DNA of 45,460 nt. Origin: a virus. Its lineage: Duplodnaviria > Caudoviricetes. Numbering within the stretch: position 1 is the stretch's first letter; each line of letters starts with the position of its first letter. The notes below the pieces were generated by a model. The model searched no databases and was not told the origin of the DNA. It worked only from the letters and a program-made list of their open reading frames with translations. Position numbers and translations under genes: made by a program. Positions 1-45,449 of this stretch are shown piece by piece. The stretch spans positions 1-45,460 of the IMG/VR virus record IMGVR_UViG_3300017766_003504, one strand, 5' to 3'.

Positions 1-102
1 AGAGCGAACTCTTTTTGCTAGAAATAATTAAAATTACCCTGTAAGTAATTGCCTCATCACACAAGACGCTGTTCCCCCAATCAACTAAGTTTACGTTTGT
101 CC

Positions 103-1011
103 ATGCCCGAAAAACTGAAAAATTACAGAAGCGCTCGCGGCAAAATTGCGAGTGCCAACAACATCCGTGGACAGAGGAAACCCCAAAAGGAAAACTTGCT
201 TGAGGGTCTTACAAATCTGGACACCGGAGAGTCAGCGGATGGAATCCCCCTCACATCTTACCCAAGCATGAAAGCAGCGGCACACGCGCTGAAAATTGAT
301 ATTGGTATCTTGAAAGATGCGCGAGCAAAAGCGTGCAGCGCATTCAACGGCAGTGGCGCTGTTCACCGGGAGCGGCTGTTGTTGTGGTTGAAGAACAACG
401 CCCGTCACGCATTGGAGGGAACACCCCCACCGGACCAATCCCAAGACAACCAAGACCCGGACACACAGGACGAGTTTGTAGATAACTACAACATCCCGGA
501 TGAAGCCGGTGGAGTTGGTCAAACGCTGAAAAGCCTCCAAGCCTACGAACGGCGATTAAAGCAGATATTGGACAAGTTGGAGCGCTCAACCAATTTGCAC
601 CCGTCCGTAAAAGCGGACAAAGTGAAACAGGCACAGGACGCTTGGCTAAAAGTCGTCAACTCGCTTTTGAAGTATGACTTGGCGGTTGACATGGCAAAAC
701 GGGAAAGCGGCGAGTTGCTTCCAATGGCGGATGCGATTAAAGCTGTGCAAGCTCTTCTGGCATGGCACACGGTTGGCACCAGTGACGCGCTACGCAACGC
801 AATCCCGGAATGTGAGGGAAAGACCAAGTACGAGATTGCCGCCATTCTGGACCCCGTGCTTAGAAGCGCCATTTATCGCAATTTCAAGTTGGGGGTGAAG
901 ATTGGTAAAATCCCCGAATGGATGGCAAAGACAGCAACGGACTTCATGGTAAAGGAAAAACCTCTTGACCTTGAAGACAAGAAAGGGTCAACTAATTTGG
1001 ATGATTATTAA
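103..1011 (+). CDS. Putative terminase small subunit (Nu1-like)
   Basis: First gene, upstream of the GpA-type terminase. Helical C-terminal half with 'DMAKRESGELLPMADA', resembling the Nu1-like 'ERGELV' segment. ATG at 103 chosen within ORF 49..1011. Ends in NLDDY. Confidence 0.6.
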   Translation: MPEKLKNYRSARGKIASANNIRGQRKPQKENLLEGLTNLDTGESADGIPLTSYPSMKAAAHALKIDIGILKDARAKACSAFNGSGAVHRERLLLWLKNNARHALEGTPPPDQSQDNQDPDTQDEFVDNYNIPDEAGGVGQTLKSLQAYERRLKQILDKLERSTNLHPSVKADKVKQAQDAWLKVVNSLLKYDLAVDMAKRESGELLPMADAIKAVQALLAWHTVGTSDALRNAIPECEGKTKYEIAAILDPVLRSAIYRNFKLGVKIGKIPEWMAKTATDFMVKEKPLDLEDKKGSTNLDDY

Positions 1012-8416: not shown

Positions 8417-8902
8417 GTGAGCCGTAACAAGAATAACCCCTTAGCCGCTCAACAGCCCCCGCCAGCGTTCGCAAATGACCATAGCGGCTTCTTTGGTGCT
8501 GTTCTGGCAGAAAACCACACATCGGGCATTTCTAGTTTACTGCCGGGCGGCACAGTGATTCAATCAGACGTTGCGGTAAAGGGACGGCTGCTAGCCTCGC
8601 AAATCGCTTGGACCCCTGCAAAGGCACGTTGGAACGGGTGTAACATCACAATTTCCCTCGCGGATTCACAGTTTTTGCTTGCCTTGGAAACTGGTGGCGA
8701 CACTCAACAGGGACGTATCACCGTCATGGTTGAGAAGTTGCAATTTGGCTCAACTGGCTTGCCCGGTGACGGCGGGTTTGGGCAAACCTTTGAAATCCAA
8801 GCAGGTGGAAAGTGGATTCAGTTTACCATTGCTGAAATTTTTGGGCAATACGACGACAACGAACCGGGGCTAATTCTGTCTCTGGAAAGGGATTTGGAAT
8901 GA
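8417..8902 (+). CDS. Putative head-tail connector/closure protein
   Basis: Position and size only; predicted beta-rich; coupled to the next gene by ATGA. Confidence 0.5.
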   Translation: MSRNKNNPLAAQQPPPAFANDHSGFFGAVLAENHTSGISSLLPGGTVIQSDVAVKGRLLASQIAWTPAKARWNGCNITISLADSQFLLALETGGDTQQGRITVMVEKLQFGSTGLPGDGGFGQTFEIQAGGKWIQFTIAEIFGQYDDNEPGLILSLERDLE

Positions 8903-9384
8903 ACTCGCAAATTGATTTAGAGCGCAAAACGGAAAAGGCACTTGCCGCGCGGTTCAAGCAACAACCGCTTCTTGCCAAGCTTCGGATGCGGATGAACTCC
9001 GAAGATAGCTCAAAAATCAACCAAGACCTTGTTATCAGTGCCAAGCGTGGGGACGGGAATCCCCCATATTCCGGCATCTACAACATGGATGTTACATGCA
9101 CCTACACGATGAAGCATCGCAGGAGCATTGACACACTTCCGTTGTTTTTACGTGTCTGCGCTGCGATGGAAGAGGTTTTCAATGTCACCGCAATTGACAT
9201 GGTGGGCGGTGTCCCCACCCAACGGATTGCCGTGCAACTTAGTTCATGCGTTCCAAATTTTCATTGCTACGAAGTGGCGGTTAGTGGTAAGGATGACACT
9301 CCCGAAGACATGAAGCACAAATGCGAATGGTCCTTGTCTCTTATTGCAATGAGCCAATCATATGCTAATGCTGTAAATCTCTAA
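8899..9384 (+). CDS. Putative tail terminator/completion protein
   Basis: 161 aa, alpha/beta pattern, precedes the tube-like gene; 5 Cys. Confidence 0.5.
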   Translation: MNSQIDLERKTEKALAARFKQQPLLAKLRMRMNSEDSSKINQDLVISAKRGDGNPPYSGIYNMDVTCTYTMKHRRSIDTLPLFLRVCAAMEEVFNVTAIDMVGGVPTQRIAVQLSSCVPNFHCYEVAVSGKDDTPEDMKHKCEWSLSLIAMSQSYANAVNL

Positions 9385-9415: not shown

Positions 9416-9784
9416 ATGGCCGATTTTGGTTCTCTTGCTCTCCTTTCCCGTTGCGTTGGCGCTGTTTCCGGTCTTAACGCAGAAAGCTACTCTGCCGACA
9501 TTTCCTGTGACCTTGTGAAAACGCCGGATGTTTGCGGCGAGAACGTGCAAGCGTTCACCAAGAACGTTGTTGCGGACCATCAATGGAGCGGTGAAATCCT
9601 TGGACCTTCCGCCACTGGTGCGGCGGTGTTTACCGTTGGTGCCAGTGCCACCCCGCCCGCTGGTGTGTGGGGCTTCAACATGACGCCGGGAGCGTCCTAC
9701 ATTTGCACCAAAGCCAACCCACAATACACCCGTGGCGAGTGGGCAAAGTTTGGCTTTACGCTCAACAACAGCGCGGGGATTTAA
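9416..9784 (+). CDS. Putative tail tube (major tail) protein
   Basis: 122 aa beta-rich protein upstream of the chaperone and tape measure genes; 4 Cys. Confidence 0.5.
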   Translation: MADFGSLALLSRCVGAVSGLNAESYSADISCDLVKTPDVCGENVQAFTKNVVADHQWSGEILGPSATGAAVFTVGASATPPAGVWGFNMTPGASYICTKANPQYTRGEWAKFGFTLNNSAGI

Positions 9785-9930: not shown

Positions 9931-10542
9931 ATGTCTGCTTTCGCTGTCCAAAGCGAACCCCCGGCAGCGGACCAAAGCACCTACGGGACTAAAGACCCCA
10001 TTCTAGCGGCAACGCTAGGCAACTTTGGGTTTCAAGCGCGCCACTCCATTCCAGTGATGCTGGTTGTGTCCGCAAGCGGGGTGATTGACGCAGTGGACAA
10101 AAAGACGGGACGCATCGCGGATTGCGCGCATTTGGAGTTTCGTTTTGAAGCGGAAGTGATGGACTCTGTTTACGGGGTGCTGCGGGCGCAAGACGTGGCT
10201 TTTGCCCATGAGATTGCAAAACTAGCTCAAAAGGAGGAAACCCGCGAGATTTCCGGTGCAGAGGGGTTGCGGCTGTCACAGATGCGGGAGCGGTGGAAAT
10301 CCCGTTCAATCGGTAAGGATGGGCAAAACATGGCAGGCACGTTGCTTTACATGGTGCAAAAGTGTTATGACCAAGTAACCAATTTCATGGTAATTTGCGT
10401 TGTGACAAAAGAGCTTGCGAGAAACCCAATGATTGAGTTTAGCAAATTAGTTTACGAAGGGGTTGCTTACGCCGTTGAACCACTCGAAACAGAACCGCAA
10501 GCACAGCGCAGAAGCGAAAAGATGATGCTGAAACCCCGCTAA
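9931..10542 (+). CDS. Hypothetical protein in tail module
   Basis: 203-aa ORF in operon context. Confidence 0.6.
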   Translation: MSAFAVQSEPPAADQSTYGTKDPILAATLGNFGFQARHSIPVMLVVSASGVIDAVDKKTGRIADCAHLEFRFEAEVMDSVYGVLRAQDVAFAHEIAKLAQKEETREISGAEGLRLSQMRERWKSRSIGKDGQNMAGTLLYMVQKCYDQVTNFMVICVVTKELARNPMIEFSKLVYEGVAYAVEPLETEPQAQRRSEKMMLKPR

Positions 10543-10548
10543 CTTCCC

Positions 10549-11082
10549 ATGCCCATCCTAAACCCAAATTCAGTTTCACCGGAAGAAGCCCAACGGGAAA
10601 AAACCATTGGGCAGGCAATCGTAAATGGCGCGCAAAGTGTTTGCGGATTACACTGCGTCCGGGACATTACTCCCCTTGTGATGACTGTTTTGCAGCGCAC
10701 AAACAACCCGTTCGTAACAGGCAAGGCGGGGTTTGAGGCTGCGGGCATTTCATTTGCCGAAGATGGGAATGTGCAAGACCCGGCGCAATTCGCAATGCGC
10801 ATGATGCCCTTTACTGCGGAAGTGCTCATTTGCTTTTCGTGCTCCCGTGAAGACCTAAAGCGCTACGCGGCGGATTCTGCCGCTCTCCAAAGCGCAGCGC
10901 TGGACTACATGGAGGGTTCAACCATTGAAGCTTTGGCAGAGGCAACGGTGTTCGTTTCAGAGCGGTTGGGGGTAATTACTAAAAGCCGTGCTTCTCCGTC
11001 GCAAGAATCAACCAAGCCAAAGGCTGCCGGATTGGGAGGGGACGGCAAAGGAAGCCCAAAAAAGCGCGTCCGCACTGGCTAG
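10549..11082 (+). CDS. Tail assembly chaperone (gpG-like)
   Basis: Upstream of tape measure; ends just after slippery heptamer A AAA AAG (11058-11064). Confidence 0.7.
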   Translation: MPILNPNSVSPEEAQREKTIGQAIVNGAQSVCGLHCVRDITPLVMTVLQRTNNPFVTGKAGFEAAGISFAEDGNVQDPAQFAMRMMPFTAEVLICFSCSREDLKRYAADSAALQSAALDYMEGSTIEALAEATVFVSERLGVITKSRASPSQESTKPKAAGLGGDGKGSPKKRVRTG

Positions 11083-11294
11083 CGCAAATCCTTGTTTCCC
11101 TTCTCCCGCTTTACGGGGACGAAGACTTGATTTTGTGCGACATGGGATTAGCAAAGTGTTATGCGCTAATTCACGCCATTGCGGACCAAAACGGAGCGGA
11201 AACCGTGTGGGCGGATGAAGACCAAGGCGGGCAAGTTGCCTGCATGGAGCAAGCCCGCGAAATTATGCGCAACAACTACCGATTCAGAGAATGA
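11058..11294 (+). CDS. -1 frameshift extension of tail chaperone (gpGT-like)
   Basis: The -1 frame after A AAA AAG is open for ~76 codons (ARPHWLAQILVSLLPLYGDEDL...NNYRFRE) and stops at a TGA overlapping the next ATG at 11291. Confidence 0.75.
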   Translation, partial: KKARPHWLAQILVSLLPLYGDEDLILCDMGLAKCYALIHAIADQNGAETVWADEDQGGQVACMEQAREIMRNNYRFRE

Positions 11295-11872
11295 GCAAAA
11301 CAGGCGCGACATGGAATGACACTAATTTCAAGAATGGTCTGAAAAACTATCTTGATTTCAAAAGGAACGTTGACCCGAAGACAGAGCTAAGACGGCGCGC
11401 AAAGAATGTGGGTATGCGTCTGGTGGGCATCTTCAAAACAAAGGGTGTCAGCTTGTCTGACATTACAAGCAAGGCAAGGTCTTTGGGGGGTAGGCTAAAG
11501 GTGCGCCCCAAAATCTTAGCAAAAGGGAAAGCGTTGGGTTGGACGTGGGCGCGGATACTTCGCGCGGAAACCAATGCCCGCCGCTCTGCAAAGGGGTTTA
11601 CTTCAACGGGTTGGTTTCCATCGGTGGAGAAGTTGGGAGGAAGCCCAAAACGCGCCATCCGCCCCGGTGGGGGACCAAGGCGCGGAAAGATAATTGAGAA
11701 GATGGGAACTTTTGTGAAATCGGAAACCTTGGTTAACGAACAGCCGGGAGCGGGGCACACTGCGGACAAGACAGCCGGTGACACGCAAAAAGCCTTGGAT
11801 GATGAAACGGCAGACATGGCGGCTTACGTTGACCGCAAACTTAGGCAAGCGGCTAGGAGAAATGGACTATGA
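11291..11872 (+). CDS. Basic tail-completion / neck protein (gp10-like)
   Basis: 193 aa, very Lys/Arg-rich, with a 'GW' motif; tail-module location. Confidence 0.5.
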   Translation: MSKTGATWNDTNFKNGLKNYLDFKRNVDPKTELRRRAKNVGMRLVGIFKTKGVSLSDITSKARSLGGRLKVRPKILAKGKALGWTWARILRAETNARRSAKGFTSTGWFPSVEKLGGSPKRAIRPGGGPRRGKIIEKMGTFVKSETLVNEQPGAGHTADKTAGDTQKALDDETADMAAYVDRKLRQAARRNGL

Positions 11873-12180
11873 TGCAACCCCACGCCGGGCGCTGGTTATG
11901 GTGGCAGCTTCATACGTTCACAGAGAAGATAGACCAATCACCAGAACAGCGGAAGGCTTGGCTTGCAAACTGGTTTGCCACGGTAAAAAAGTTGCTTGGG
12001 TGTGACAGTTGTTACAAGAAACTTGAGCGCTTTTGCAATTTGTGGGAACCCCCGCTAAACGGCGATTTACACGCTTGGGGTATGTGCCTACATGACTATG
12101 TAAACCACGAACTTGGCCGGGGGCTAGCCTACCCCGAATTGACGCTTGCCCCGCTGAAAGAAAGAGGCATAGTCCACTGA
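11869..12180 (+). CDS. Erv1/Alr-like FAD-linked sulfhydryl oxidase
   Basis: 'GRWLWWQLHT', 'LLGCDSC' (CxxC), 'WGMCLHDYVNHELGR' in the order and spacing of the ERV/ALR signature G..W..LH / CxxC / W....HN.VN..LGK. Confidence 0.72.
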   Translation: MMQPHAGRWLWWQLHTFTEKIDQSPEQRKAWLANWFATVKKLLGCDSCYKKLERFCNLWEPPLNGDLHAWGMCLHDYVNHELGRGLAYPELTLAPLKERGIVH

Positions 12181-12181
12181 C

Positions 12182-13561
12182 ATGGCACGTAACTCCAAAG
12201 CCACCGCAAAGGTTGAGCTAGATTCCGGTCCTTTCGAGAAGGGAGCGAAAGCTATCATCAGTGCTGCAAATGCCATGTCAATGGCGGTAAAGGCGGCGAT
12301 GGGTGCGGCGGGTGCGGCGCTTGTGGCAGCTTTTGGGGTGAAGTTTGTACGAGGCATTAAGGACGCAATCAAAGACGTTTTGGACCTTGGTGAAGAGATG
12401 GCAAACGCGGGCAAAAGAGTGGGTGCCGCTGCCGGGCAATTCTACTTGTTCAACCGTGCGGTTGAGAAAGGGATTGCGCTAAAAACTGCCGGGAGACTTA
12501 TTGGGGAAAATGCCGAAGCGCTCAACCGTTCTGCGAATACTTTCCGCGACGTGTCAATCAAGTTGTGGGCGGTAGGTGAGAAGATTCGCGGTTTCTGGCT
12601 TGGACTTATGGAGCGCGTTGCCCCGGTGCTCTCCAAGTTGCTTGACGGTGCCCTTGGGGTTAGCTTGGTGAAAGCAGGCAACGATTTTGGAGAAGCTTTG
12701 GTGAACGCTGTTGGAGTCGTTTACCAACTAGCCAAGGACGGCAAGCTTTGGGACACAATCAAAGAGGGTTTTGGAATTGCTTTTGATTATGCTGTTGAGC
12801 GTTTGCGGTGGTTTGCGAGCACGTTGTTTAGCGCCGTGTATCAGGCAATGTCCAATGCGCTTTACAGCGCGCTTACAACGACATTTGAGGAAGTAAAAAA
12901 TCAGTTTATTTCCTTGGGTGCTGTTCTGTCTTTCCACATTAGCAAGGCATTGGTGAACGCGGCAGTTGCGTTTGCTGGCACAATGAATAAGTGGGTTGGC
13001 GCTTTTGGGAAAATCCTTGCCGGGTTTTCGCGCGGCGGGTTTTCTGGCGCGGGAGTGGCAATCAAAGACTTGGCAATGGGTGGGAGGGAACCGGACTTGA
13101 TTGCAAGCGGTGTTGATACCGCTGCCAAAGCAGCAAAGGCAAAAGCAGAACAAGAGAGTTTCGCGGACACCATTAAAAAGGTGTTTTCTGAAAATGGGTT
13201 TAAGATGAATCCAGAGATGCAAGCCCGCATTGACAAGTTAGGCATTGGGCTTGGTGCTACATTTGACAAATTCAAAAGCAGTCAAACGAATGCCCCCGGT
13301 CAAAGCATTGAGAACAACACCCGGCGCGCAGCGTTTGGCGCGGATTCGCTCACGTCCATTGGCGGCGGCGGCGGGGTTTATCTTGGGTTGTCTGTCTTGG
13401 ACGTGAACAAGGCACAATTGCGCGAGTTGAAAGAAATTAACTCAAAACTAGGCGGCGCGTCCCTTGAGCCATCCACAAGTGACGCTTCAAACTCCCCAAG
13501 GCGTCCCGGCGTTTCACGCTTCCAATCAAACCCGCCAATTTTGAGAACTAGCAGCTTATGA
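12182..13561 (+). CDS. Tape measure protein (short, 459 aa)
   Basis: Ala/Gly-rich helical protein; N-terminal 'LDSGPFEKG' and C-terminal 'ADSLTSIGGGG' motifs; follows the chaperone genes. Confidence 0.75.
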   Translation: MARNSKATAKVELDSGPFEKGAKAIISAANAMSMAVKAAMGAAGAALVAAFGVKFVRGIKDAIKDVLDLGEEMANAGKRVGAAAGQFYLFNRAVEKGIALKTAGRLIGENAEALNRSANTFRDVSIKLWAVGEKIRGFWLGLMERVAPVLSKLLDGALGVSLVKAGNDFGEALVNAVGVVYQLAKDGKLWDTIKEGFGIAFDYAVERLRWFASTLFSAVYQAMSNALYSALTTTFEEVKNQFISLGAVLSFHISKALVNAAVAFAGTMNKWVGAFGKILAGFSRGGFSGAGVAIKDLAMGGREPDLIASGVDTAAKAAKAKAEQESFADTIKKVFSENGFKMNPEMQARIDKLGIGLGATFDKFKSSQTNAPGQSIENNTRRAAFGADSLTSIGGGGGVYLGLSVLDVNKAQLRELKEINSKLGGASLEPSTSDASNSPRRPGVSRFQSNPPILRTSSL

Positions 13562-14772: not shown

Positions 14773-15780
14773 ATGCAGACTGAAAGCCTCTGGACGGTAG
14801 ACACAATTTCGGCGTCACTCACCATTAATAATAACTATGGTGACCGTGTTCTTGATATAAACTTTAAGGCTTTATTTAGCAGGCGCACACTTCTTAGCAT
14901 CCGTTCCTTTCAAGCTATTTGCGCAAGCAGGGGCGGTTATCGTGCGCTAATTGAGCCGGGCGAGTTTGTTCTTGCGCAACGAGACACACGGGGAAAATGC
15001 GCGTGTTGCCCATGTAGCCCCGAACTGGATTTTAACCCGCTGCCACCTGTGGCTTGCGGGACGGAGACTTATACGGACCCCGGCATAGAAGACAAAACGC
15101 TTTTTGGTGAAGTTACCATTTTAGACATCATCCCAAAAAACTGCCGCCCCGGATATGTTGACCCATCGTACTATTTCATAGACGAAGAGGGACCATACTT
15201 TACAGACTTTGTGCCCGCAACGCTGGCAATATCAGCGGTCATTGAAGGGGTGCAAGATTTGGTAAACGAAGAACAAACGGTTATTGCGGGGGGAGGTACG
15301 TTCTTCTTTGGCAGCGCTGTCTTGAAGTGGACAAATCCAGATGGGTGGATTGTGGACATTGCTTTAGCCGCTTCGTTGGGTCCAAGTTTTATGGGTCACA
15401 ACTTTACCGCAGTTGCGAGTTTCACACCACCCCCACCAGAAGACCCACAACCAGAAACAGACCCCGTTGAAGGGTTGGAAATCTCTTTGGAAACGAATGG
15501 TATCCGCGTTGCGTTTACTGGACAGTATGCCGGGCTTGCTGTTGGCCTGATTCAGTTGGTTAGCAACGATGTAACCACGCGCGATTTCCTTTCACCGCTA
15601 AACCTTCCTTCCGCCCGCATGGTGGCTACTTTTCTTATTCGGGAAGGTGCGCCAAATGGACCAGACCACTCAACATGGAGCGTGTCTTTGCCAATCAGCG
15701 GAAGATGCCCCAAGAACTACACCGGCAGCGCTCCCATAGGCTTTGCAGTCAGTGGCGAGTACATCATTGAATGGAGTTAA
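14773..15780 (+). CDS. Cys-rich putative tail protein
   Basis: ATG at 14773 in ORF 14689..15780; contains 'KCACCPC'; 8 Cys. Confidence 0.6.
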   Translation: MQTESLWTVDTISASLTINNNYGDRVLDINFKALFSRRTLLSIRSFQAICASRGGYRALIEPGEFVLAQRDTRGKCACCPCSPELDFNPLPPVACGTETYTDPGIEDKTLFGEVTILDIIPKNCRPGYVDPSYYFIDEEGPYFTDFVPATLAISAVIEGVQDLVNEEQTVIAGGGTFFFGSAVLKWTNPDGWIVDIALAASLGPSFMGHNFTAVASFTPPPPEDPQPETDPVEGLEISLETNGIRVAFTGQYAGLAVGLIQLVSNDVTTRDFLSPLNLPSARMVATFLIREGAPNGPDHSTWSVSLPISGRCPKNYTGSAPIGFAVSGEYIIEWS

Positions 15781-16001
15781 AAGGCAAAATTGAACGATGG
15801 GTAGTAAAGGACAGGCACCGTATTTGCAGTGCATGTGCGCAACTCGCACAGTGTTCAAGCGCGGGAGTGCTAAAGACATTGTTTTTTGAAGTCTCACGTT
15901 GCCCACTTGGAAAGCACCTATCGCGCAACGATGCAGTTGCCAAACGTGCTTGGCCGGACAGCGCCCCGCCGGTCAGTGGGTGTTGTGACAGGATGGACTA
16001 G
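15771..16001 (+). CDS. Small Cys-rich protein
   Basis: 76 aa with 6 Cys (CSAC, C, CPLGK, GCC); overlaps the previous stop. Confidence 0.6.
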   Translation: MELKGKIERWVVKDRHRICSACAQLAQCSSAGVLKTLFFEVSRCPLGKHLSRNDAVAKRAWPDSAPPVSGCCDRMD

Positions 16002-19556: not shown

Positions 19557-22500
19557 ATGAGAAGCACAATCCGATTAACCACGCTGGCAGCACTGGCACT
19601 TTGCCAAGTTTCTTGCAACCCACAGTTGCAGGCGGCACCCCCAACCACGGGGCAATTTCTATTCCAGCGCAAAGCCGCATCCGGTCCCTTTACTCCGTTT
19701 GGTGTAACCCCCGTCACAGGTCAAGCTTTCGGTTGGGACGGAACAAACGTGGTTATGATGAGTTCGGGCGGGGCAACCAATTGGGGCGGAATTGGTGGCA
19801 CCCTTTCAAATCAAACTGATTTACAAAGTGCGCTGAATCTCAAGTTGTCCCTTGCCGGGGTGCTCCCGCTTGCGGGCTTTTCAAGCATTACAGGTTCGCT
19901 CCCGGACGCCAATCTTTCGGCAAATGTCCAGTTGAAAAACGGCACACTTGCCCTTTCTAGCTTTGGCAGTGTTACCGGCTCCCTCGCGGATGCCCGGCTT
20001 TCTTCTAATGTCCAGCTTGCCAATGGGACACTTGCCCTTAATGGCTTTGGAAGCATCACAGGAACGTTGCCAGCTGCGCGAGTTGGCGACTTGTCCGCAA
20101 CCTATTTGACAGTTGCCGCTGCCGCTTCCAGCTATCAACCATTGGACGCGGATTTGACTTCATGGGCGGCGGTTACTCGCGCCAGCGGGTTTGACACTTT
20201 TACAGCAACGCCTAGCAGTGCAAACCTTGCTTCCCTTGTTACTGGTGAAACTGGCACGGGCGCATTGGTGTTCGCCAATTCCCCGGCACTTATTACCCCG
20301 GACCTTGGAACACCAAGCGCACTTGTCCTTACCAATGCCACGGGGCTAAGTGGCAGTGCGGTAAGCGGGGGCACCTTTGGGGCGGTGAACGGCAGCGCGC
20401 TAACCGCGCTCAATGCGTCCAACATTTCAACCGGCACACTTGCTGCCGCACGGGTTGGCGACTTGTCCGCAACCTATTTGACCCCGGCAGCGGCAGCGGC
20501 AGCATATCAACCATTGGATGCAGACTTGACCGCTATTGCTGCGTTGACAGGCACCAATACGATTTACTACCGAAGCGGGGCGGCAACGTGGACGCCTGTT
20601 ACTGTTGGCACAGGGTTGACCTTTTCGGGTGGCACGTTGTCCGGGTCAACTGGCACAGGGTCCGTAACAAGTGTTGCAATGACCGTGCCAAGCATTTTCA
20701 GCTTATCCGGTTCGCCCATTACCACATCTGGCACCCTTGCTGTTTCTCTGGCTTCGCAGAGCGCCAACACCATCTTTGCCGGTCCCACAACCGGCAGCGC
20801 TGCCACCCCCGCATTTCGCGCGTTGGTTGCTGCCGACATTCCAAGCCTTTCTTCCGTTTATCAACCATTGGATGCAGACTTGACCGCTATTGCTGCGCTG
20901 ACAGGCACCAATACGATTTACTACCGTGCGGGGACTAGCAGTTGGGCACCCGTCACCATTGGGGACGGTTTGGGTTTCTCTGGTGGAACAATTGAAGCAA
21001 CCAGTGGGGTTGACACCAACGCAACGCTAACCGCTGACAGGCTTTGGACTTTCGGGCAATTCGGGCTTTGGATGCAATCCACAGAACCAGTTGCCGAACC
21101 TTTCATTTTTGAAGTTACTGCCAACACGGGGAGCGTGGATTTATTCCATATCCGCAACCCCGGTGGGACAGTTGTGCGCGTCCCAAGTGACGGCGGTTTG
21201 GTTGCCAACTACTTCACTTCGCTGGCGGATGTTTCCGGCACGTCCCTTACCGCCAGAGGCTCTAGCAGTGGTTCTGTTATTCTCGCGTCACCCGCAACAG
21301 GCAATTCCGGGACAATCACCATTGGGAGCACAACCAACCAATTTTCTTTCACCAATGGAACGGCATCGTTGACTGTCCCCGCTGGCGTTAGCGGCACGCT
21401 TAATTCCATCGCCTTTGTTACGCCGGGCACGGGCATAAACACCTTCCTCGCCACACCAAGCGGGGCAAACCTTGCTTCGGCGCTCACCACGGCTTTGCCA
21501 GCGTCCAAAGGCGGCACGGGGCTTACTTCCCTTGGAACAGGCATCGCAACAGCCTTGGGGGTCAATACTGGCAGCGCCGGGGCACCTGTGCTGTTCAATG
21601 GGGCTTTGGGAACACCTAGCAGTGGCACAATCAGCGGCAGCTTTGTAACTGGTGGCACCTTTGGGGCGGTGAATGGGTCCGCGCTTACGGCTCTGAATGC
21701 GTCCAACATTTCGAGTGGTTCGCTTTCGGATTCGCGGCTGTCTGCGAACGTCCAACTTGCCAATGGGACACTTGCCCTTGGCGGCTTTGGAAGCATTACA
21801 GGCACACTTGCTGCCGCCCGCATCGCGGATTTGTCCGCAACGTATTTGACCGTTGCCGCTGCCGCTGCCGGTTATCAACCATTGGACGCTGACTTAACCG
21901 CCATTGCTGCGCTGTCTGGCACCAACAACATTTATTACCGAAGTGGGGCGGGGGCTTGGTCCAGTGTCACCATTGGGACGGGATTGGCCTTTTCTGGCGG
22001 CTCACTGACTACGGAAATCAACGGTGCCACGGGAACAACTGATAACGTGATTCTCCGCGCGGACGGGACTGGCGCAAAAACTGTTCAAGGCGGCGGGGTG
22101 CTCACTTTGTCAGACACCGGGGCTTTGGGTTTCCCCGATGGGGTTAGCCAAGTCTTCAACCCCAATGGCACCAATTCCGGGTTGAACGTGGGCGCTGTTG
22201 CTGGCGACCCGTCAAGCCCCTCCAACGGAGATTTGTGGTACGATTCAACTGCCAATGAACTAACAGCGCGTATCAACGGTGCAAGCGTGGTGTTGGGGGT
22301 TGGCAGCTTCGCCGTTGGCACAACGCCGGTTACTTCCGGCACCGTTGGGCGGCTGTTTTTTGAGGGTGCAGGCAACGTGATTAGTCAAGATTCAGACCTT
22401 TCTTTTTCCACAGACACGTTGACAGCCACAAAGCTAAACTGCAACCAAGTAGCAATCACAAGCGGGAGCAATATGAAAGCGGGAACATTTGCCTTGGCTT

Positions 22501-22700: not shown

Positions 22701-22871
22701 ATGAAGACCGCTACAAAATCCGCGCAAAAGTCAGAGTCCACGAACGGCAAGAAATACACCAAAGTTGGGAACGCGCCAAGTGGTGAGTGGCTTGTAAAGG
22801 ACAACGCGACGGGTGAAGAAAAGAAAGCGTCTGACTTTGGTGACGTGACTTTGGAAAACACTGATTTGTGA
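22701..22871 (+). CDS. Small hypothetical protein (56 aa)
   Basis: Read by eye: MKTATKSAQK...TLENTDL; its TGA overlaps the endolysin GTG. Confidence 0.5.
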   Translation: MKTATKSAQKSESTNGKKYTKVGNAPSGEWLVKDNATGEEKKASDFGDVTLENTDL

Positions 22872-23425
22872 CAGCGGCGCAAATCAAGGAAGTCCAACGC
22901 AAAGTTGGGACAAATCCAGACGGGTTTTGGGGTCCAAAGTCCATTGCCGCAACGCAAAAGTATTTACGCGCTTTAATGCCGAAGCCAAACCCTTGGCCGA
23001 AAACATCACAGGCGGCGCTTACTGCTTTTTATGGGCGCGCTGGTGATGAGTCAAAGCTTGTAAACCTCCCCGCTCCCGCTCCAATGTTTTATGAAGGCAA
23101 ACGAATCAAAACCATCCGCTGCCATGCAAAAGTTGCGGCTTCGCTTTCCCGTGCGCTCACTGGGGCGCATAGCGTCTTCCCCGATGTTGTTGCCGTTTAT
23201 GGTGGCTGTTACAACAATCGTTCTATGCGCGGCGGTAACACTCCATCCCTACACGCGCGGGGGGCTGCAATAGATTTGTGGGCGTCAAAGAATGGGAACA
23301 AAGCCCATTGGCCGGTTGCGGCGCGGATGCCTCTTGGTGTGATGGAGGCATTCGCGCGTGAAGGTTGGTTGCCTGCCGGGGCATTTTGGTCGCGCGATGC
23401 GATGCACTTTCAAGCAACCCAATAA
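22868..23425 (+). CDS. Endolysin, peptidase M15 family, with short peptidoglycan-binding motif
   Basis: 'SLHARGAAIDL' (SxHxxGxAxD) and 'DAMHFQ' zinc motifs; N-terminal 'PDGFWGPKS'. Confidence 0.88.
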   Translation: MTAAQIKEVQRKVGTNPDGFWGPKSIAATQKYLRALMPKPNPWPKTSQAALTAFYGRAGDESKLVNLPAPAPMFYEGKRIKTIRCHAKVAASLSRALTGAHSVFPDVVAVYGGCYNNRSMRGGNTPSLHARGAAIDLWASKNGNKAHWPVAARMPLGVMEAFAREGWLPAGAFWSRDAMHFQATQ

Positions 23426-23462
23426 GTCAAAAACACTGTTGCCCTAAAAAGCAAATTTCTAT

Positions 23463-23903
23463 ATGAACGCAACTTCTCCGCACATTCACGCACATTCTAT
23501 GTCATCTCCGCTTCTTGCCAGCGCGCTAACAGCAGTTATTACCCTTGCCGCAATCCAAGCCGCTGCAAACCCGGACGCATTTGCAATCGTGGGCGCAATG
23601 CTTGGCACGATTATCATTTTCCTTGAAGCCCGCGAGAAAGGGCGTTCATGGCTCAAGACTGGCTCAAGTGTTATCGGGAGCGCGTTTTGTGGCACAGTGC
23701 TCCCCGGTGCCCTGCTTTGGTTCTTTGTCCCCGAATTTGCTGCCAAGGCTCATTGGCAGATTTGGGCGGGCGCTGGCTTCCTTTGCGGGTTGGCGGGGTG
23801 GGCAACGGTGCTAGCTGCCATCGCAATTTACGAATCCCGGCGCGATGCGATCTTGAAAAGGGCGGCAGACCGTTACATGCCTCGCGGGGGACGCCGTTAC
23901 TAG
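23463..23903 (+). CDS. Holin-like membrane protein
   Basis: 3-4 hydrophobic segments, basic C-terminus, next to the endolysin. Confidence 0.6.
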   Translation: MNATSPHIHAHSMSSPLLASALTAVITLAAIQAAANPDAFAIVGAMLGTIIIFLEAREKGRSWLKTGSSVIGSAFCGTVLPGALLWFFVPEFAAKAHWQIWAGAGFLCGLAGWATVLAAIAIYESRRDAILKRAADRYMPRGGRRY

Positions 23904-23909
23904 CAGCCC

Positions 23910-24194
23910 GTGAAACTCGCGCTTTTGCCCCTCCTAGCTCTTTTGGTGGGTGGTTGCACGTCAATCCCCACCCCAAGGGGCACAGCGCGATTTTGGGGCG
24001 ACTACAAGAGCGTTGAGCTTGTGGATGGTCCTTTTCGATTTTCCGCCACTGACATGAAGCACAGCGCTGTTGCGCGTGCTCACTGGAAAGGCGCTGCCAG
24101 TGTTGGTGCCCAAATTGTTGCCGGGGCAATTGGAGTAAGCCAACCCGCGACCGGCGCGAGTGCGGCAGTAGCAACGCAAGTTTTCTCTCCTTAG
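23910..24194 (+). CDS. Lipoprotein, possible spanin
   Basis: Signal peptide with lipobox 'LLVGGC', C-terminal hydrophobic stretch; last gene of the lysis cassette. Confidence 0.55.
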   Translation: MKLALLPLLALLVGGCTSIPTPRGTARFWGDYKSVELVDGPFRFSATDMKHSAVARAHWKGAASVGAQIVAGAIGVSQPATGASAAVATQVFSP

Positions 24195-26339: not shown

Positions 26340-26666
26340 TTAATAGTCGTCCAAGTTCGGGGCGGGTTTACCCCATTCAACCATAGAGATAACATGCCGC
26401 TTTCCTTCATCCACGTTATCAATCACAAATACTTGTGTCCCCTGTGCCCGAATCTTGGCAATTTCGATTTCCTGTCCAGCGGTGGGCTTGCAACCCTTTC
26501 GCTTAAACTCAATGAAGAAAACCCCTTTGCCCCCCGGCATGATGAATAGCCTGTCCGGGACACTTCGGCGGCTTGGACTGGTGAACTTATAGACCAAGCA
26601 ACCCAGTTGCTTCGCATGGTCACACACCTTCTTTTCGATTACCTTTTCAAGAGGGTCTTTTTTCAT
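26340..26666 (-). CDS. VRR-NUC domain nuclease
   Basis: 'VPDRL...FFIEFKR...PTAGQ' PD-(D/E)xK motif; ends in NLDDY. Confidence 0.9.
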   Translation of the reverse strand: MKKDPLEKVIEKKVCDHAKQLGCLVYKFTSPSRRSVPDRLFIMPGGKGVFFIEFKRKGCKPTAGQEIEIAKIRAQGTQVFVIDNVDEGKRHVISMVEWGKPAPNLDDY

Positions 26667-27095: not shown

Positions 27096-28901
27096 TCAAT
27101 CTTTCTTGTAAAAAGGCACTTCCCCGCCTTCCGCTTCAATTGGCAACCCATCCGCCCAAGCGGGCATATCGGTCAAGCACTCCACAAACCTTTCCGCTCG
27201 TTGGCCGGGGGTTTTGTATGCTAGTGCTTGGTCATGGATTAATGCCATGATGCCAAACCCGTCTGCTTCGGCGTTGTGGGCACCCTGACACATAATGTCA
27301 GCGGCAACCGCTTGGGTGATGTTTTCCACCAATTTTCCCCCGTACGTGTCAACGTCGCCCCACTGTGTCCCAATGATGTGCCCGAAAAACTTGATTGCAA
27401 GCTTGCCTTCAAACTTCGGTGAGGGAACAAGCCGGGGGCGTGGGTAAGCCAGTTTGCGACCAGACGGAAGTTTGCAAAACAGAAAAGGCAAACCGTTGGT
27501 GTGCTCATACAGGAAATGCACTGGCACCTTGTACGGTCCAAGCCGCTTATTCGACACCCTGACTATCTCCCCACGGTGCGCAATCGCCCGCTGTGCCGCG
27601 TTCTCCACGTCATACCAATAGCTTTCAACCCGTGCATGTTTCTCGCGGAAGGCTGTCACGGCGAGCCGGGCAAGGTCCAACTCACATTTGTAGCGTCCAA
27701 GCTTCCAGCACGTTTGCACGAACTTTTCCCCACCTTTGCCCATGCCAAAGCCGCAATTGTGGACAAGCACATTTGACACTGTAAAACGGTGGCGCGGTCC
27801 CGCATTCAAAATGTCGTAAGTTGCAACAATCTTTTTTGAATGGTTCTCCAACCCTTGCGTTTCTCTGTTACTGATTGCCTCGCTTTCGCTAGTATTTGCT
27901 CCCTGTCCATCCCAAGAGTTAGGTATTTCCTCACCGTGAACTCGCAATAGGGCCATTCCGGGGCTAGGTAAAGCAGATTTATTTTTGGAACTGACTGGTT
28001 TAGGATTTGTGTTCTCCGCGTGACATATCTTAGGTTTCCGGGGGCGTAGTGTCCTTCGTTGTCCTTCCTGTCTAGCTCTAGGTGTCTCTTCAAGCCTAAG
28101 TTGTCCATCACCCAATGGGCTGCTTGTATAGCGGAAGGGAATAGAAATTGGATTCCACGCCCCCCGTACCAGTGGAACGCTTGGTTGTCTGGATTGGTGC
28201 AACGGTCCTTCGCTGCTTGCATCCGCGACACCAACCACTTGGGGGCACGTCTGATTTGTCTTTCCTTGTGCGCGCATGGGTCGCACCCCAAGCTTGCGCC
28301 GCGCGCTAAGGTTCTGTGGTCTATAAATGTCACTGTTCCACACACGCATTGCACCTTGGCAACCCTGTATTGTTTCCGAAGGTAAACTTGTTTGCTTATC
28401 AGCTTCCACCGTCCGAATCGGTGCCCCTCCTTTTCCAGAAACAAGCAACCTTTGCTTCTGTTCCCTCGCACTCCGTAAATTGGTTGTTCGTTCAAGTCCC
28501 ATGCTATCACGGATAAAGACTTGGTGGCATGGGGTTGCGGTAAGCCCTTGGTGTGTGATAACTTCCTTGTGTCCTTGGTAGATAACTCCATCATGGTTTA
28601 CCCACTCTACCCCATCCCAAACGCGGTGCCAACAACAAACTTTCTCAATTGGAACAAGCCCAAAATCAGTTAGCACAAGCTCCCCCTCTGCGATGCAACC
28701 CAAGATGGTTTGTTTCCCAATGAACCGTTGCGGGTGCTTGTTTACTTCCTCATAGGGCACCCTGAAGATAAATGACGCCATCGTTTTATATCGGTCCAAG
28801 CCTTGCCGGTATTCGTCCAATGCATCTTCCTGTCCCGCGAGCCAACATACAATGCGGGCTTCAATGGCAGCGTAGTCAGCGTCAAAAAGGGGACGGGTCA
28901 T
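27096..28901 (-). CDS. DNA polymerase family A, C-terminal part, intein-containing
   Basis: Motif A 'DADYAAIEAR', motif B 'RFIGKQTILG/CGFGMG' split by the intein, 'ENITQAVAAD', motif C 'IHDQ'. Confidence 0.9.
   Translation of the reverse strand: MTRPLFDADYAAIEARIVCWLAGQEDALDEYRQGLDRYKTMASFIFRVPYEEVNKHPQRFIGKQTILGCIAEGELVLTDFGLVPIEKVCCWHRVWDGVEWVNHDGVIYQGHKEVITHQGLTATPCHQVFIRDSMGLERTTNLRSAREQKQRLLVSGKGGAPIRTVEADKQTSLPSETIQGCQGAMRVWNSDIYRPQNLSARRKLGVRPMRAQGKTNQTCPQVVGVADASSEGPLHQSRQPSVPLVRGAWNPISIPFRYTSSPLGDGQLRLEETPRARQEGQRRTLRPRKPKICHAENTNPKPVSSKNKSALPSPGMALLRVHGEEIPNSWDGQGANTSESEAISNRETQGLENHSKKIVATYDILNAGPRHRFTVSNVLVHNCGFGMGKGGEKFVQTCWKLGRYKCELDLARLAVTAFREKHARVESYWYDVENAAQRAIAHRGEIVRVSNKRLGPYKVPVHFLYEHTNGLPFLFCKLPSGRKLAYPRPRLVPSPKFEGKLAIKFFGHIIGTQWGDVDTYGGKLVENITQAVAADIMCQGAHNAEADGFGIMALIHDQALAYKTPGQRAERFVECLTDMPAWADGLPIEAEGGEVPFYKKD
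27756..28697 (-). mobile_element. Intein (314 aa) in polymerase motif B
   Basis: Starts CIAEGELVLT (block A), has 'ATPCHQVF' (block B TxxH), 'TYDI' (block F), ends VLVHN followed by Cys+1. Confidence 0.9.
27806..28594 (-). CDS. HNH-family homing endonuclease in an alternative (+1) frame inside the intein
   Basis: 'RFGRW', 'CVCG', 'GCDPC', 'RCTNP...WYGGRGI', 'LDRKDNEGHYAPGNLRYVTRRTQILN'. Start codon uncertain. Confidence 0.82.
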   Translation of the reverse strand: MMELSTKDTRKLSHTKGLPQPHATKSLSVIAWDLNEQPIYGVRGNRSKGCLFLEKEGHRFGRWKLISKQVYLRKQYRVAKVQCVCGTVTFIDHRTLARGASLGCDPCAHKERQIRRAPKWLVSRMQAAKDRCTNPDNQAFHWYGGRGIQFLFPSAIQAAHWVMDNLGLKRHLELDRKDNEGHYAPGNLRYVTRRTQILNQSVPKINLLYLAPEWPYCEFTVRKYLTLGMDREQILAKARQSVTEKRKGWRTIQKRLLQLTTF

Positions 28902-29128
28902 TTTCTGGAAACATAGGTAATTTCCAAACGAGGAAAGTCCAGATAGCTAAATGAGCATATACCTTCGTAACTTGTGACGCATACAAGCCCGCCCATGTGT
29001 GTATGCAAAGAATGACACTCTGTGGCATCACCGGGAGGGAGATAGTAGATATATCCTACCTTTTCCCCTTCGCAGCGAAGCAAATACGGGATTGGGGTGT
29101 CTGACTTATTAGTTAGTACTATTTTCAT
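28898..29128 (-). CDS. 76-aa hypothetical ORF inserted between the two polymerase halves
   Basis: MKIVLTNK...YVSRK; ATGA overlaps at both ends. Confidence 0.6.
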   Translation of the reverse strand: MKIVLTNKSDTPIPYLLRCEGEKVGYIYYLPPGDATECHSLHTHMGGLVCVTSYEGICSFSYLDFPRLEITYVSRK

Positions 29129-30314
29129 ACGTCTTGAACAAAGTGCCTTATACACGAACTAATGACTTCCAACACCGGACCATAACAGATTTCCAGCATC
29201 TCCCGTGAGCACCCTTCGCAAATCATTTTATAGGCTCCCTCGCTGTCCTTAATCGTGGGGCGTTTCATGTTCTGAAACTGGACTAGGCTGTTGGTGCTTC
29301 GCCCCGTGGTAGCCCCGTGGTGATTCAGCATCCCCCGGATTCGGTTGTCGCCCGGTCCAGCGCAATCCAGCATCGTTTGGACCTTCTTAATAGACACGTA
29401 AGCAACGGATTGCTTCATGCGGAGCGCAGCAAGCCAGTCACACGCAAGGTCATCCCTTACGTCTTCGTATTTCTCTAGCAGAGTGTCAATCGTCTCCGCT
29501 TGGAGGTTATCTAGGTGGCACCCTTGCGAATGTAGCCACTCAATAAAGACCTTGTTTTGGGTGTATTCAAATCCGGTGAGTTGTCGAAAACGCGCTCCAA
29601 CAATTTCGGTTTCTTGGTCAATAAGGGTTTGGGCGTGTCGTAGCGCATCCAAATTGACAGCAACCCCGCGAGCGTTAATGGTTTCATGTAACGTGTAATT
29701 GGCGTTGTTGATTGGTTCGTCAAAGTAACTTAGCAACTTGGTTGCCCCACGCTCAACAAGTACGTCCGTTTTGCAGTATTCCAGCAACTCCGCGAACGCT
29801 TCCGGTTCATCCTGTGGGTAGATTCGGCGCACCGGCAACGCTGGTTTTTTCAATGTGGCTTCCTTCGCTTTTTGCATCTGGCAAAATTTGCGAATCAACA
29901 CCTTACCCTTTTTGTCTTTTTGCGTGGTTAGCTCCAACACTTCCCCCAACTTTTCCAGACTCCCCGGTAAAGCAGCGCGGCGGGCCAGTGACATGGCGCA
30001 ACGCCAGCGGGAGATATGCGGCGGCTCAATGCCCCACGTCTTGAGCATAAGCGCGGAAGATATGGCTATCTCGAATTGGGCGCTGAACGCATAGACCAAC
30101 GTTTCCGGGTCTTCCAAGGCGTCAAGATACTTGTCAAATTCGTTTGACTCTCCCTCTTTTATTCCTGCTTTCCAAATCCACGGTGCTTCATCCCCAATGC
30201 CATTGCAGCGCAAAGTATTTCCGTGCTTGGGTCAAAGGCATAGCGGTAAGCCCCAACGTCTTTCAAATCGACTTCGGAGAATGTTTCAAGATCTATGTGA
30301 AGACGTTGGGGCAT
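29125..30314 (-). CDS. DNA polymerase family A, N-terminal part (3'-5' exonuclease + thumb), frameshifted near 30192-30195
   Basis: ATG 30314 gives MPQRLHIDLETFSEVDL (ExoI motif DxE). The frame changes at a G4 run into ORF 29125..30213, which has 'AFSAQFE', 'YCKTDV', 'INARGV', 'HGATTGRS', 'QFQNM'. Confidence 0.82.
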
Positions 30315-30564: not shown

Positions 30565-31185
30565 TTAGTAATCGTCCAAGTTGGTAGGTGGCTTGCTGCC
30601 GCCACCGGACCGGCTACGTCCCGAAGAAGCCGGGGGTGCCATTGTGCCGCCGCCGTCTTCTGTGTCGATTGCCTCAAACTCCTTGGTGGCGTCCACCGGA
30701 CCCGCGCCAAAGCTTTCCCCATCCTTCACAAACTGGACAGCGCGGAGTTGAGCGTTGACCCGCTTCCCCCATTGGTTGTTTTGGACCCACAGGCGGATTG
30801 TCGCGTTGACGTAGCACCCCGCGTAAATGATGCCGTCTGATTCCACAATTGGATTAAGGCGACGGTCAACAACACCCGGACGGGCTTTGTTGCTGGCGGT
30901 GAGGAAGCTTTTGCCGTCCCCATAGCCTTCCAGTTCGGATTTTTCGTTTCCGTCGCGGAGGCACCGCTTGAAATTGATTTTCTTCTTAAACTCGTCCAGC
31001 GCAAGCCGGTCAATCTGTGCGTCAATCTTGTCAAGAAGTGCAGCGTGTTCGTTGTTGTCGAAAAGGAAGGTAGCGGAGAACTTTTGTTCCTGTCCCTCTT
31101 CCATAGCGTGTGGGGTGAACAGGTGCGGGAAGGACAGGCGCACGTTCGGGAGTGTGATAATTCCGGGGTCTTTTTCGTTTGACAT
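30565..31185 (-). CDS. ssDNA-binding protein (DUF2815 / T7 gp2.5-like)
   Basis: 'NVRLSFPHLF', 'LRDGN', 'IYAGCYVNA', 'VQFVKDGESFG'; flexible tail ending NLDDY. Confidence 0.88.
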   Translation of the reverse strand: MSNEKDPGIITLPNVRLSFPHLFTPHAMEEGQEQKFSATFLFDNNEHAALLDKIDAQIDRLALDEFKKKINFKRCLRDGNEKSELEGYGDGKSFLTASNKARPGVVDRRLNPIVESDGIIYAGCYVNATIRLWVQNNQWGKRVNAQLRAVQFVKDGESFGAGPVDATKEFEAIDTEDGGGTMAPPASSGRSRSGGGSKPPTNLDDY

Positions 31186-38318: not shown

Positions 38319-38519
38319 CTATCTTTGTAAAACTGTAGGGTTCCCGGATTTGCTTTTAGTCGCGCGTTCAAAAAAGCATTTTCCAAAGTCAATTGGAAAC
38401 TCTTCAAACGCAAACTCAACTACTCTAACCGTCGAATCGTTTTGAACTTGCTCAACCCTTGCCACCCATGCGCGCGTTTGTTCCTGATAAAATAAAGAAA
38501 ATTTATAATTAGTAGTCAT
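38319..38519 (-). CDS. Hypothetical protein
   Basis: 66 aa, overlaps the end of the previous gene. Confidence 0.5.
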   Translation of the reverse strand: MTTNYKFSLFYQEQTRAWVARVEQVQNDSTVRVVEFAFEEFPIDFGKCFFERATKSKSGNPTVLQR

Positions 38520-38889
38520 CTAAGTTGGTGGAAGGTGTGGGGGTAATTGGTTCGCTGGAAATTGTTGGGTTCAACCGGCACAGCGCGACAAAGCGCCCAC
38601 CGTTCTTGTCACAGATGTAGTCCACCAAGGCAACGGAAAAGCGTCTGTTAAGCTTGGTGAGCGCTGCGCTTAGGTCTTCGGTCGCAATCTTGAAGCGGGG
38701 GATAACTTCAAAAACCCCGTCGCCTATGTCGTCCAATCCGCTGTTACCCAACACTTCGGCGCATTTGGTAGCGCATTCAAAGTGAGCAACAAACTTGCCC
38801 ACACCGGACACCAGTGTTATGGCAGCGCCAAGGGACGCGGTTCGTTGCAAAGCGTAGCCTTTCCGCTTTAACTCCGTAAGAGATGGCAT
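38509..38889 (-). CDS. Standalone MutS domain I-like protein
   Basis: 'ITLVSGVGKFVAHFECATKCAEVLG' and 'IPRFKIATEDLSAALTKLNRRFSVALVD' parallel the MutS-I pattern; ends NLDDY. Alignment by eye only. Confidence 0.45.
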   Translation of the reverse strand: MPSLTELKRKGYALQRTASLGAAITLVSGVGKFVAHFECATKCAEVLGNSGLDDIGDGVFEVIPRFKIATEDLSAALTKLNRRFSVALVDYICDKNGGRFVALCRLNPTISSEPITPTPSTNLDDY

Positions 38890-40567: not shown

Positions 40568-41088
40568 GCGTCAATAACAGAGAGTTTTATCGTTTATCAC
40601 CATTTGGTAAATGTGCGGATTTGATATTTTGCAACGCCTTAGCCAACAAATTGTCAAAAGGGTGGAATAGCGCGCACCTATTCTGGTGGGTAGCTTTTTC
40701 ATTTGTGGGCGCGGGTTGATAGTCGGCTTGCGTTGATGGTTAAGGTATACGAATAAAAATTAGTTAAGGTTTACGAATAAACCCTCGGCGGTTTACTGGT
40801 TGCCGCTTGCTAGGTTTCGTCGTTTAGCATTTCCTCAAGTGGGCGGTTTACTGGCTTGGCAATCCCCAAGGCAAAGCGAAAGGGACGGAATAGGCGGGTT
40901 ACTGTCTTGAGCGCAATGCGCCCAATGGGGTTGTCTGCTAGAAAGGTCATAGGATAATGGCGTCTATTGGATATTGTGCGACTATGCAAGCCCAAATTCC
41001 CGCAGTATTCCGTGAACGTGAAAGGCTATGGGTTTCCCGCTGACAGCCTTTCGAGCTATGCAAAGGAGATGAAGAGTAATGCGGGTTT

Positions 41089-41881: not shown

Positions 41882-41925
41882 TGAGTGAGTGAGTGAGTGA
41901 GTGAGTGAGTGAGTGAGTGAGTGAG
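41882..41925. repeat. (TGAG)11 microsatellite
   Basis: Eleven perfect copies, intergenic, directly after the stop of ORF 41926. Confidence 0.95.
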
Positions 41926-45226: not shown

Positions 45227-45390
45227 GTTTACGGGTAAACTAAATTGGGCTGTTTACGGGTAAACAACACCAGTGGAGACAACGTGATAAAAGTTTACTG
45301 GTAAACGTAGGGTTTACGAATAAAGCTTTACGGGTAAAATAGAGGTTTACTGTAAACGTTTACGGGTAAACGTAGGGTTTACGAATAAAC
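45227..45390. repeat. Array of ~8 palindromic GTTTAC-NN-GTAAAC motifs
   Basis: Copies start at 45227, 45252, 45293, 45312, 45326, 45345, 45358, 45377. Confidence 0.85.
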
Positions 45391-45449
45391 CCCACCCCGG
45401 TAAGGAATCTCTTGCTGCGAAAGTGAGTTTTGCCTTCCCTTCTTCTCCT

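Follow-up and report, generated by a model that had tools for sequence, protein, structure and literature searches.

What is a gene for an Erv-like protein doing among the tail genes of a bacteriophage, and on what might its product act? Erv proteins are related to flavin enzymes that form disulfides in eukaryotes and giant viruses. The DNA analyzed here (referred to as the window) is a whole virus record of 45,460 bases, from an uncultured freshwater tailed phage. Family searches matched a lambda-type terminase, a portal, and a major head protein; together with an M15 peptidase and a replication arm (PolA, SSB, and primase), also encoded in the window, these mark it as a tailed phage and not a eukaryotic virus. 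No sheath match was found among the 24 late open reading frames (ORFs) scanned, so the tail is presumably non-contractile. A promoter scan performed at chance level (4 found vs. 5.3 expected).

The ORF in question (11869-12180, plus strand) is open for 103 aa, and its frame includes W11-x3-H15 (WWQLH), C45-D-S-C48, and L74-H-D-Y-V-N79-H-E-L-G83, in Erv order; the original prediction, which had picked out W..LH, CxxC, and LHDYVNHELG in ERV/ALR order, was therefore read correctly. The Pfam Evr1_Alr model, proposed there as a check, matches above its curated cut-off (PF04777; E 4.6e-7, 30.5 bits against 27.6), and since none of 14 control genomes has a match at E 0.001, this is not a chance result. 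As a lone sequence the protein is less informative: it matched ALR structures weakly (E 0.028), retrieved only itself in protein searches and one spurious short match (L001) in viral contigs, and had no match in 50,697 GenBank phage records. Querying with a relative (P0013) gave a Mollyvirus record plus one weak 30% piece and nothing else, and a metagenome scan found no record besides the window's own.

Relatives were reached instead through the capsid gene, with PF04777 found in 2 of 15 records, the only two of the 15 that are at least 90% complete. A search with a three-member Erv alignment gave 36 proteins; the family alignment excludes one outlier of 177 aa and has 35 members. Each of these matches PF04777 (E 0.01 or better) and nothing else in Pfam; mean column identity is 44%, with W11, H15, W35, C45, C48, K51, W70, H75, and N79 invariant, and G7 in 26 members. 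The family profile matches 15 solved Erv/ALR sequences, with E values from 4.9e-9 to 1.5e-4; apart from a weak match to QSOX, there is nothing else up to E 1. Among the 15, Arabidopsis Erv1 (2hj3, E 4.9e-9), yeast Erv1 (4e0h), ALR (3o55, 1oqc), and yeast Erv2 (1jr8), matched at up to E 3.6e-5, have G-x3-W-x3-H, CxxC, and W-x4-H-x3-N-x2-L-G in the same order and at the same spacing as the phage family. W11, H15, the CxxC, W70, H75, and N79 coincide with conserved positions of the solved FAD enzymes, C45 and C48 being aligned with the CxxC of the solved chains. By sequence, the ORF encodes an Erv/ALR-family protein, and that protein is likely to be an FAD sulfhydryl oxidase.

Structure models of the protein are of uneven quality. 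A poor single-sequence model, made with no alignment (pLDDT 67.6, pTM 0.54), has helices at 6-19, 25-43, 46-55, 67-83, and 93-98. The CxxC lies at the start of the third of these, as the active-site CxxC does in Erv enzymes. The Erv fold is a four-helix FAD-binding bundle; compared with this model, Erv chains score Z 4.7-4.9 and are interspersed with other bundles (for 3gwl_B, Z 4.9, rmsd 4.5, and 80 residues aligned), and Foldseek returned no match with it. An Atlas model (pTM 0.81) has an Erv cluster as its nearest neighbor, at TM 0.67, below the tool's naming bar. The gene is under purifying selection, as judged from dN/dS values of 0.32, 0.35, and 0.51 in three unsaturated pairs of relatives (0.04-0.14 for the predicted tube gene, below); the protein appears constrained, but drifting outside the cofactor residues.

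Fass is said to have worded the Erv motif, in 2008, as G-x3-W-x3-H ... P-CxxC ... H-N-x2-N. The solved chains have the P and the N; in the phage family the Pro before CxxC is absent from all 35 members (G in 27), and HN reads HD, Asp for Asn, in 34. There is no conserved second (shuttle) Cys pair, and the phage proteins have a conserved C-terminal extension that the aligned Erv core lacks. These departures could mean that an Erv fold with no oxidase activity now serves the tape measure, either as a chaperone of tail assembly or as a metal-binding accessory, with the CxxC and the tube cysteines metal-binding or structural. A third cysteine, C73 (27 of 35 members), and two invariant histidines could ligate metal, and the slot directly before the tape measure, which this gene occupies, is the usual chaperone slot. 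However, C73 is Ala in 7 of the 35, the chaperone slot is already filled by two other genes, and the invariant residues mostly match those of the solved FAD enzymes while the remainder drifts to about 30% identity. A non-catalytic role is accordingly considered a poor bet.

The position of the gene is constant. The original prediction placed it, translationally coupled, between a neck-like gene and the tape measure (Table 1); neither neighbor has a family match, so both labels rest on position, but the order holds in all five genomes in which this tube is present and the slot is covered (the window, G007, G017, L042, and L043). In each of these the Erv ATG overlaps the stop codon of the upstream gene (ATGA); in the window the Erv stop is followed by 1 base and then the ATG at 12182. 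Erv identity among the five is 28-43%. Two other loci with the tube gene were excluded: L003, which stops before the end of the neck-like gene, and L040, which runs into an unrelated phage module. This change of module, at 1228-1302, comes just 3′ of the tube gene, and the L040 contig is probably chimeric. Three relatives have a 2-kb block of small non-structural ORFs inserted between chaperone slot and neck-like gene (L020:14576-16446, L042:11540-13571, and L043:11522-13351), despite which Erv remains coupled to the neck-like gene.

Table 1. Tail-module genes discussed in the text, and a conserved gene of relatives.
Feature	Position	Strand	Basis or remark
Gene preceding the tube; putative tail terminator, second candidate substrate	8899-9384	+	Position
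Predicted tail tube, 122 aa, Cys 13/31/40/97; best candidate substrate	9416-9784	+	Family, models
Two genes from tube to neck-like gene; putative tail-assembly-chaperone slot	9931-10542, 10549-11082	+	
Neck-like gene, basic, no Cys	11291-11872	+	Label by position only
Erv1/Alr-family protein, 103 aa, compact, one CxxC	11869-12180	+	PF04777 above cut-off
Tape-measure-like gene, no Cys	12182-13561	+	Presumed from position and composition
Gene 3′ of tape measure, putative distal tail slot, invariant C67	13558-14274	+	
Cys-rich tail-tip genes (8 and 6 Cys)	14773-15780, 15771-16001 (together 14773-16001)	+	Not conserved with Erv
Conserved gene after head genes	L003:9263-9895, L020:11379-12050, L006:10990-11634, other relatives		

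The idea that Erv is a recent passenger here was considered and ruled out by its fixed slot, saturated dS, and neighbor-like GC content by codon position. Capsid proteins of the Erv-bearing relatives differ down to 36% identity, while the Erv position stays fixed. Searches of GTDB genomes with the capsid and tube profiles found no prophage relatives.

A contrast is provided by seven loci (L005, L006, L012, L015, L018, L021, and L023) whose capsid belongs to the same family (50-78% identity) but whose tail module is a different one. In these the chaperone slot runs directly into the tape measure with no Erv between, their tube-slot genes have 0, 1, 0, 0, 0, 1, and 0 cysteines, respectively, and Erv was found in none of the seven whole records (7-57% complete by CheckV) by Pfam, family profile, or loose motif. 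The two tube-slot families gave no alignment by hhalign. With records incomplete and lineages few, this group is a contrast rather than a statistic, and the correlation of Erv with tube comes from two lineages of tail module rather than from many independent events. Indirect evidence comes from contig sizes: among Erv clusters on contigs of at least 5 kb, 12 of 17 have a tube cluster on a contig of exactly equal length, while among tube clusters on contigs of at least 20 kb, 9 of 15 have no Erv match on a contig of equal length. This pairing used an insensitive word search, which also missed the Erv gene of L042, so that the unpaired tube clusters may be either search misses or true losses.

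The constancy of the slot also bears on whether the enzyme has anything to do with the tail. It might instead be a redox gene aimed at the host or at lysis (by H2O2 production or oxidation of host thiols) that merely makes use of late transcription: Erv enzymes are described as broad oxidants with small thiols (PMC3509050), and PF04777 has been reported in a few bacterial groups (PMC10598087). A coupled position kept across relatives with such divergent capsids would be hard to explain in this way, as would the absence of Erv from capsid-related phages with a Cys-poor tube; the lysis-like genes (22868-24194) are also 10 kb from the Erv gene. Of the explanations considered here, this seems the most remote.

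The same comparisons turned up features of the genomes that do not involve Erv. L005, L006, and L012 have the capsid gene (73-78% identity) and two neighbors in common with the window, while their terminase (22-25%) and tail modules are unrelated to it: a clean module swap. Most relatives, with either tail module, have a conserved gene directly 3′ of the head genes that is absent from the window; from its appearance we take it to be glycosyltransferase-like, although the L003 copy has no Pfam match. In the window, four unrelated proteins end in NLDDY (49-1011, plus strand; 26340-26666, 30565-31185, and 38509-38889, minus strand): they include the occupant of the small-terminase slot, a nuclease-like ORF, the SSB, and one of unknown function. 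Three ORFs of the relative G007 end in NYLDEY or NNLDEY; the observation also takes in loci L026 and L027, and no such ends occur in the other loci scanned. The shared C-terminal end looks like a tag for docking or degradation.

The family A polymerase gene of the window (27096-30213, minus strand) is in two pieces (29125-30213 and 27096-28901) that are separated by an 85-aa ORF. Its second half is open for 601 aa across an insert that, from its motifs, we presume to be intein-like (no family match stands behind it); a 262-aa HNH endonuclease ORF (27806-28594; phrog_374, E 7.5e-23) is nested in the insert in another frame. Near the genome end are related short repeats (GGTTTACGAATAAA-like), at 40741-40784 and 45288-45392, which are possibly origin or regulator sites, and there is a TGAG run at 41882-41925.

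If the enzyme does act on the tail, the product of the gene at 9416 is the most attractive substrate. Its family has 55 members, all with C13, C40, and C97; C31 is found in 52, and the three members without it have a cysteine at position 70 (present in 16 members in all). By comparison, 37 of 118 non-Cys columns reach 90% conservation. Among the five Erv genomes its 4 cysteines are all invariant, and it is the only gene of the module for which this is true.

The identification of this protein as the tail tube is a prediction from its position, size, strands with a long hairpin, and the top structural rows. A low-confidence model (pLDDT 52) has strands at 20-37, 44-61, 94-103, and 111-119, with one long hairpin. 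The top rows in structural comparisons with this model are nearly all tail-tube/Hcp folds, all of them below Z 8: the best are 9b45_S (Z 7.4, rmsd 5.4, 111 residues aligned) and 8gtb_B, a tail tube (Z 7.0, rmsd 4.6, 103 aligned). In the Atlas the nearest named cluster is PF06199, on 24% of members (0.94). HMM searches of Pfam, PHROGs, and NCBIfam gave no match (nor did the last two for Erv), and searching with the lone sequence gave one weak piece only. A four-copy model scored 0.60, vs. 0.00 for the best control, passing a mark that 20 of 30 solved pairs attain, as does 1 of 23 single chains; at least 95% of its contacts agree between runs, and pLDDT is 86 or higher. A resemblance to solved tube rings likely helped it to pass. 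On these models, the protein is predicted to be a self-assembling tail tube.

The four-copy model pairs strand 24-31 of one subunit with 98-105 of its neighbor. The interface ranges given for the model take in C13, C31, and C97, without mention of C40 at the tip of the hairpin. None of the 25 lowest-error contacts is Cys-Cys, and the contact register (i+j=129) has residue 31 facing 98, not C97. Contacts from ring to ring are beyond what a four-copy model can display. In the tube described in PMC13576161 the inter-ring elements are N-arms, loops, and the hairpin, which suggests C13 and C40 as candidates for inter-ring bonds.

The original prediction proposed as substrates several nearby Cys-rich proteins of a Cys-rich tail operon. 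The named neighbors do have numerous cysteines: 5 in 161 aa for 8899, 4 in 122 for 9416, 8 in 363 for 14773 (or 14689), and 6 in 76 for 15771. With 0 to 3 in the capsid, tape measure, and long fiber genes, however, the operon is Cys-rich only locally. Comparison of orthologs in the window, G007, G017, L042, and L043 divides the candidates further. The 8899 gene, which has no match in family searches, keeps 2 of its 5 cysteines (C87 and C123) in all five, and 9931, 10549, and 13558 keep one each; the window's capsid, neck-like, and tape-measure genes have none. For 14280, 14773, and 15771 there is no ortholog in the other four genomes (50% coverage, E 1e-4), which rules out 14773 and 15771 as conserved partners; G007 has an unrelated 480-aa gene with 10 cysteines in this slot. 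Of the proposed substrates, then, 9416 and 8899 travel with Erv and the two tip genes do not. Conserved cysteines do not of themselves imply a disulfide: the terminase keeps 9 of 13 invariant.

An active oxidase might nevertheless have another tail or tip protein as its target (8899, 13558, or the rapidly exchanged Cys-rich tip genes), with any tube disulfides formed by air after lysis. The invariant C87 and C123 of 8899 and C67 of 13558 are consistent with this, as is the presence of some Cys-bearing gene in the tip region of every Erv-bearing relative; spontaneous oxidation is considered possible in PMC13576161, and phage Milano, with a disulfide cross-linked tail (PMC10811340), offers a precedent. 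Its 68.5-kb record has no PF04777 or Erv-family-profile match, in a search that did match the window record and two relatives, so virion disulfides can form without Erv and the enzyme is not universally needed. On the other hand, the tip-region genes are not homologous among the five Erv genomes, none of their other module genes shares the tube's complete Cys conservation, and L023, a relative with no Erv match, has two small tail-tip genes with 6 cysteines each (19723-20310). These last suggest that 15771-type proteins may bind metal rather than form disulfide links. Another main target seems unlikely, if less so than the two alternatives above.

The preferred reading, held with somewhat better than even confidence, is that Erv would be a late cytoplasmic FAD oxidase forming disulfides in tail proteins, chiefly the predicted tube. 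The fixed Erv slot in the tail operon and the four conserved tube cysteines make it likely that the phage carries out the cross-linking of its tail itself, while still in the bacterial cell. In such a scheme, translational coupling would have Erv made together with the tail proteins. No signal peptide or membrane stretch was seen on inspection of its sequence. FAD would be bound beside C45-C48, as in Erv enzymes, and substrate thiols would be oxidized directly, with electrons passing via FAD to O2 as in the compact viral Erv enzymes; direct oxidation is proposed because there is neither a shuttle pair nor a thioredoxin-like partner. The sites on the tube would be C13 (N-arm), C40 (tip of the long hairpin), and C31 and C97 (strands). 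Ahead of lysis, while the tail polymerizes or immediately afterwards, the tube and the terminator-slot protein would become locked, giving a covalently reinforced tail.

To call this a cytoplasmic disulfide pathway of the phage's own, as was first suggested, goes too far. Poxvirus-type cytoplasmic disulfide relays consist of an oxidase and a thioredoxin-like shuttle, and Pfam found no thioredoxin/Dsb-type partner or thioredoxin/glutaredoxin-like carrier among the 46 window ORFs scanned, which included only some of the short or divergent ones. What may be present, more tentatively and at somewhat less than even confidence, is a one-enzyme disulfide machine: the coupled Erv would stitch tube rings together in a reducing cytoplasm. 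It would be the first catalyst of virion disulfides encoded by a phage, and would be inherited with the four-Cys tube as a single module.

Known systems offer partial parallels. Compared with the Erv1/ALR enzymes, the phage family differs in its missing shuttle pair and altered motif, as described, and in having its gene in a tail operon and a predicted site of action in the bacterial cytoplasm. Vaccinia E10R is a compact viral Erv enzyme. ASFV pB119L (3gwl, E 3.8e-7 with the family profile) is like the phage protein in its size of about 100 aa and its single FAD-proximal CxxC, and many viral Erv enzymes are described as compact and without a shuttle disulfide (PMC3509050). The roles of pB119L and E10R (the latter cited in PMC11654684) in virion morphogenesis resemble that proposed here, but the present host is bacterial, the virus is a tailed phage with a lambda-type terminase and portal, and no thioredoxin-like relay was matched. 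The nearest analogy is baculoviral: the nucleocapsid tube is disulfide-linked, and the Erv-type BSOX (Ac92/P33) has been suggested as catalyst (PMC11654684). In both cases the proposal is that an Erv-type oxidase of the virus cross-links a helical tube of protein within a reducing compartment, although BSOX has an extra pseudo-Erv domain that the phage protein lacks, and the baculovirus tube is a capsid of unrelated fold.

Tail disulfides themselves are not new. Inter-ring disulfides stabilize the gp39 tube of a siphovirus (PMC13576161); that tube belongs to the PF08813 branch, whereas the 9416 tube has no Pfam family match. Stabilizing disulfides are also reported in the tail tube or tail proteins of the Jabs phage (bioRxiv 10.64898/2026.07.24.740622). 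The present locus adds a tube with cysteines as the conserved partner of Erv, together with a matched group for contrast. According to a 2026 paper (PMC13576161), no phage-encoded catalyst of such disulfides has been described, and no paper on phage Erv genes was found in the literature searched, which covered neither supplements nor subscription papers.

The locus offers a two-gene test system: the 103-aa enzyme and the 122-aa tube, predicted to be self-assembling, can be co-expressed in E. coli with no need for the phage's own host. A compact Erv enzyme at home in the bacterial cytoplasm could also serve in the production of disulfide proteins. For the family as a whole, its occurrence in a tailed phage bears on the origin of the giant-virus Erv enzymes.
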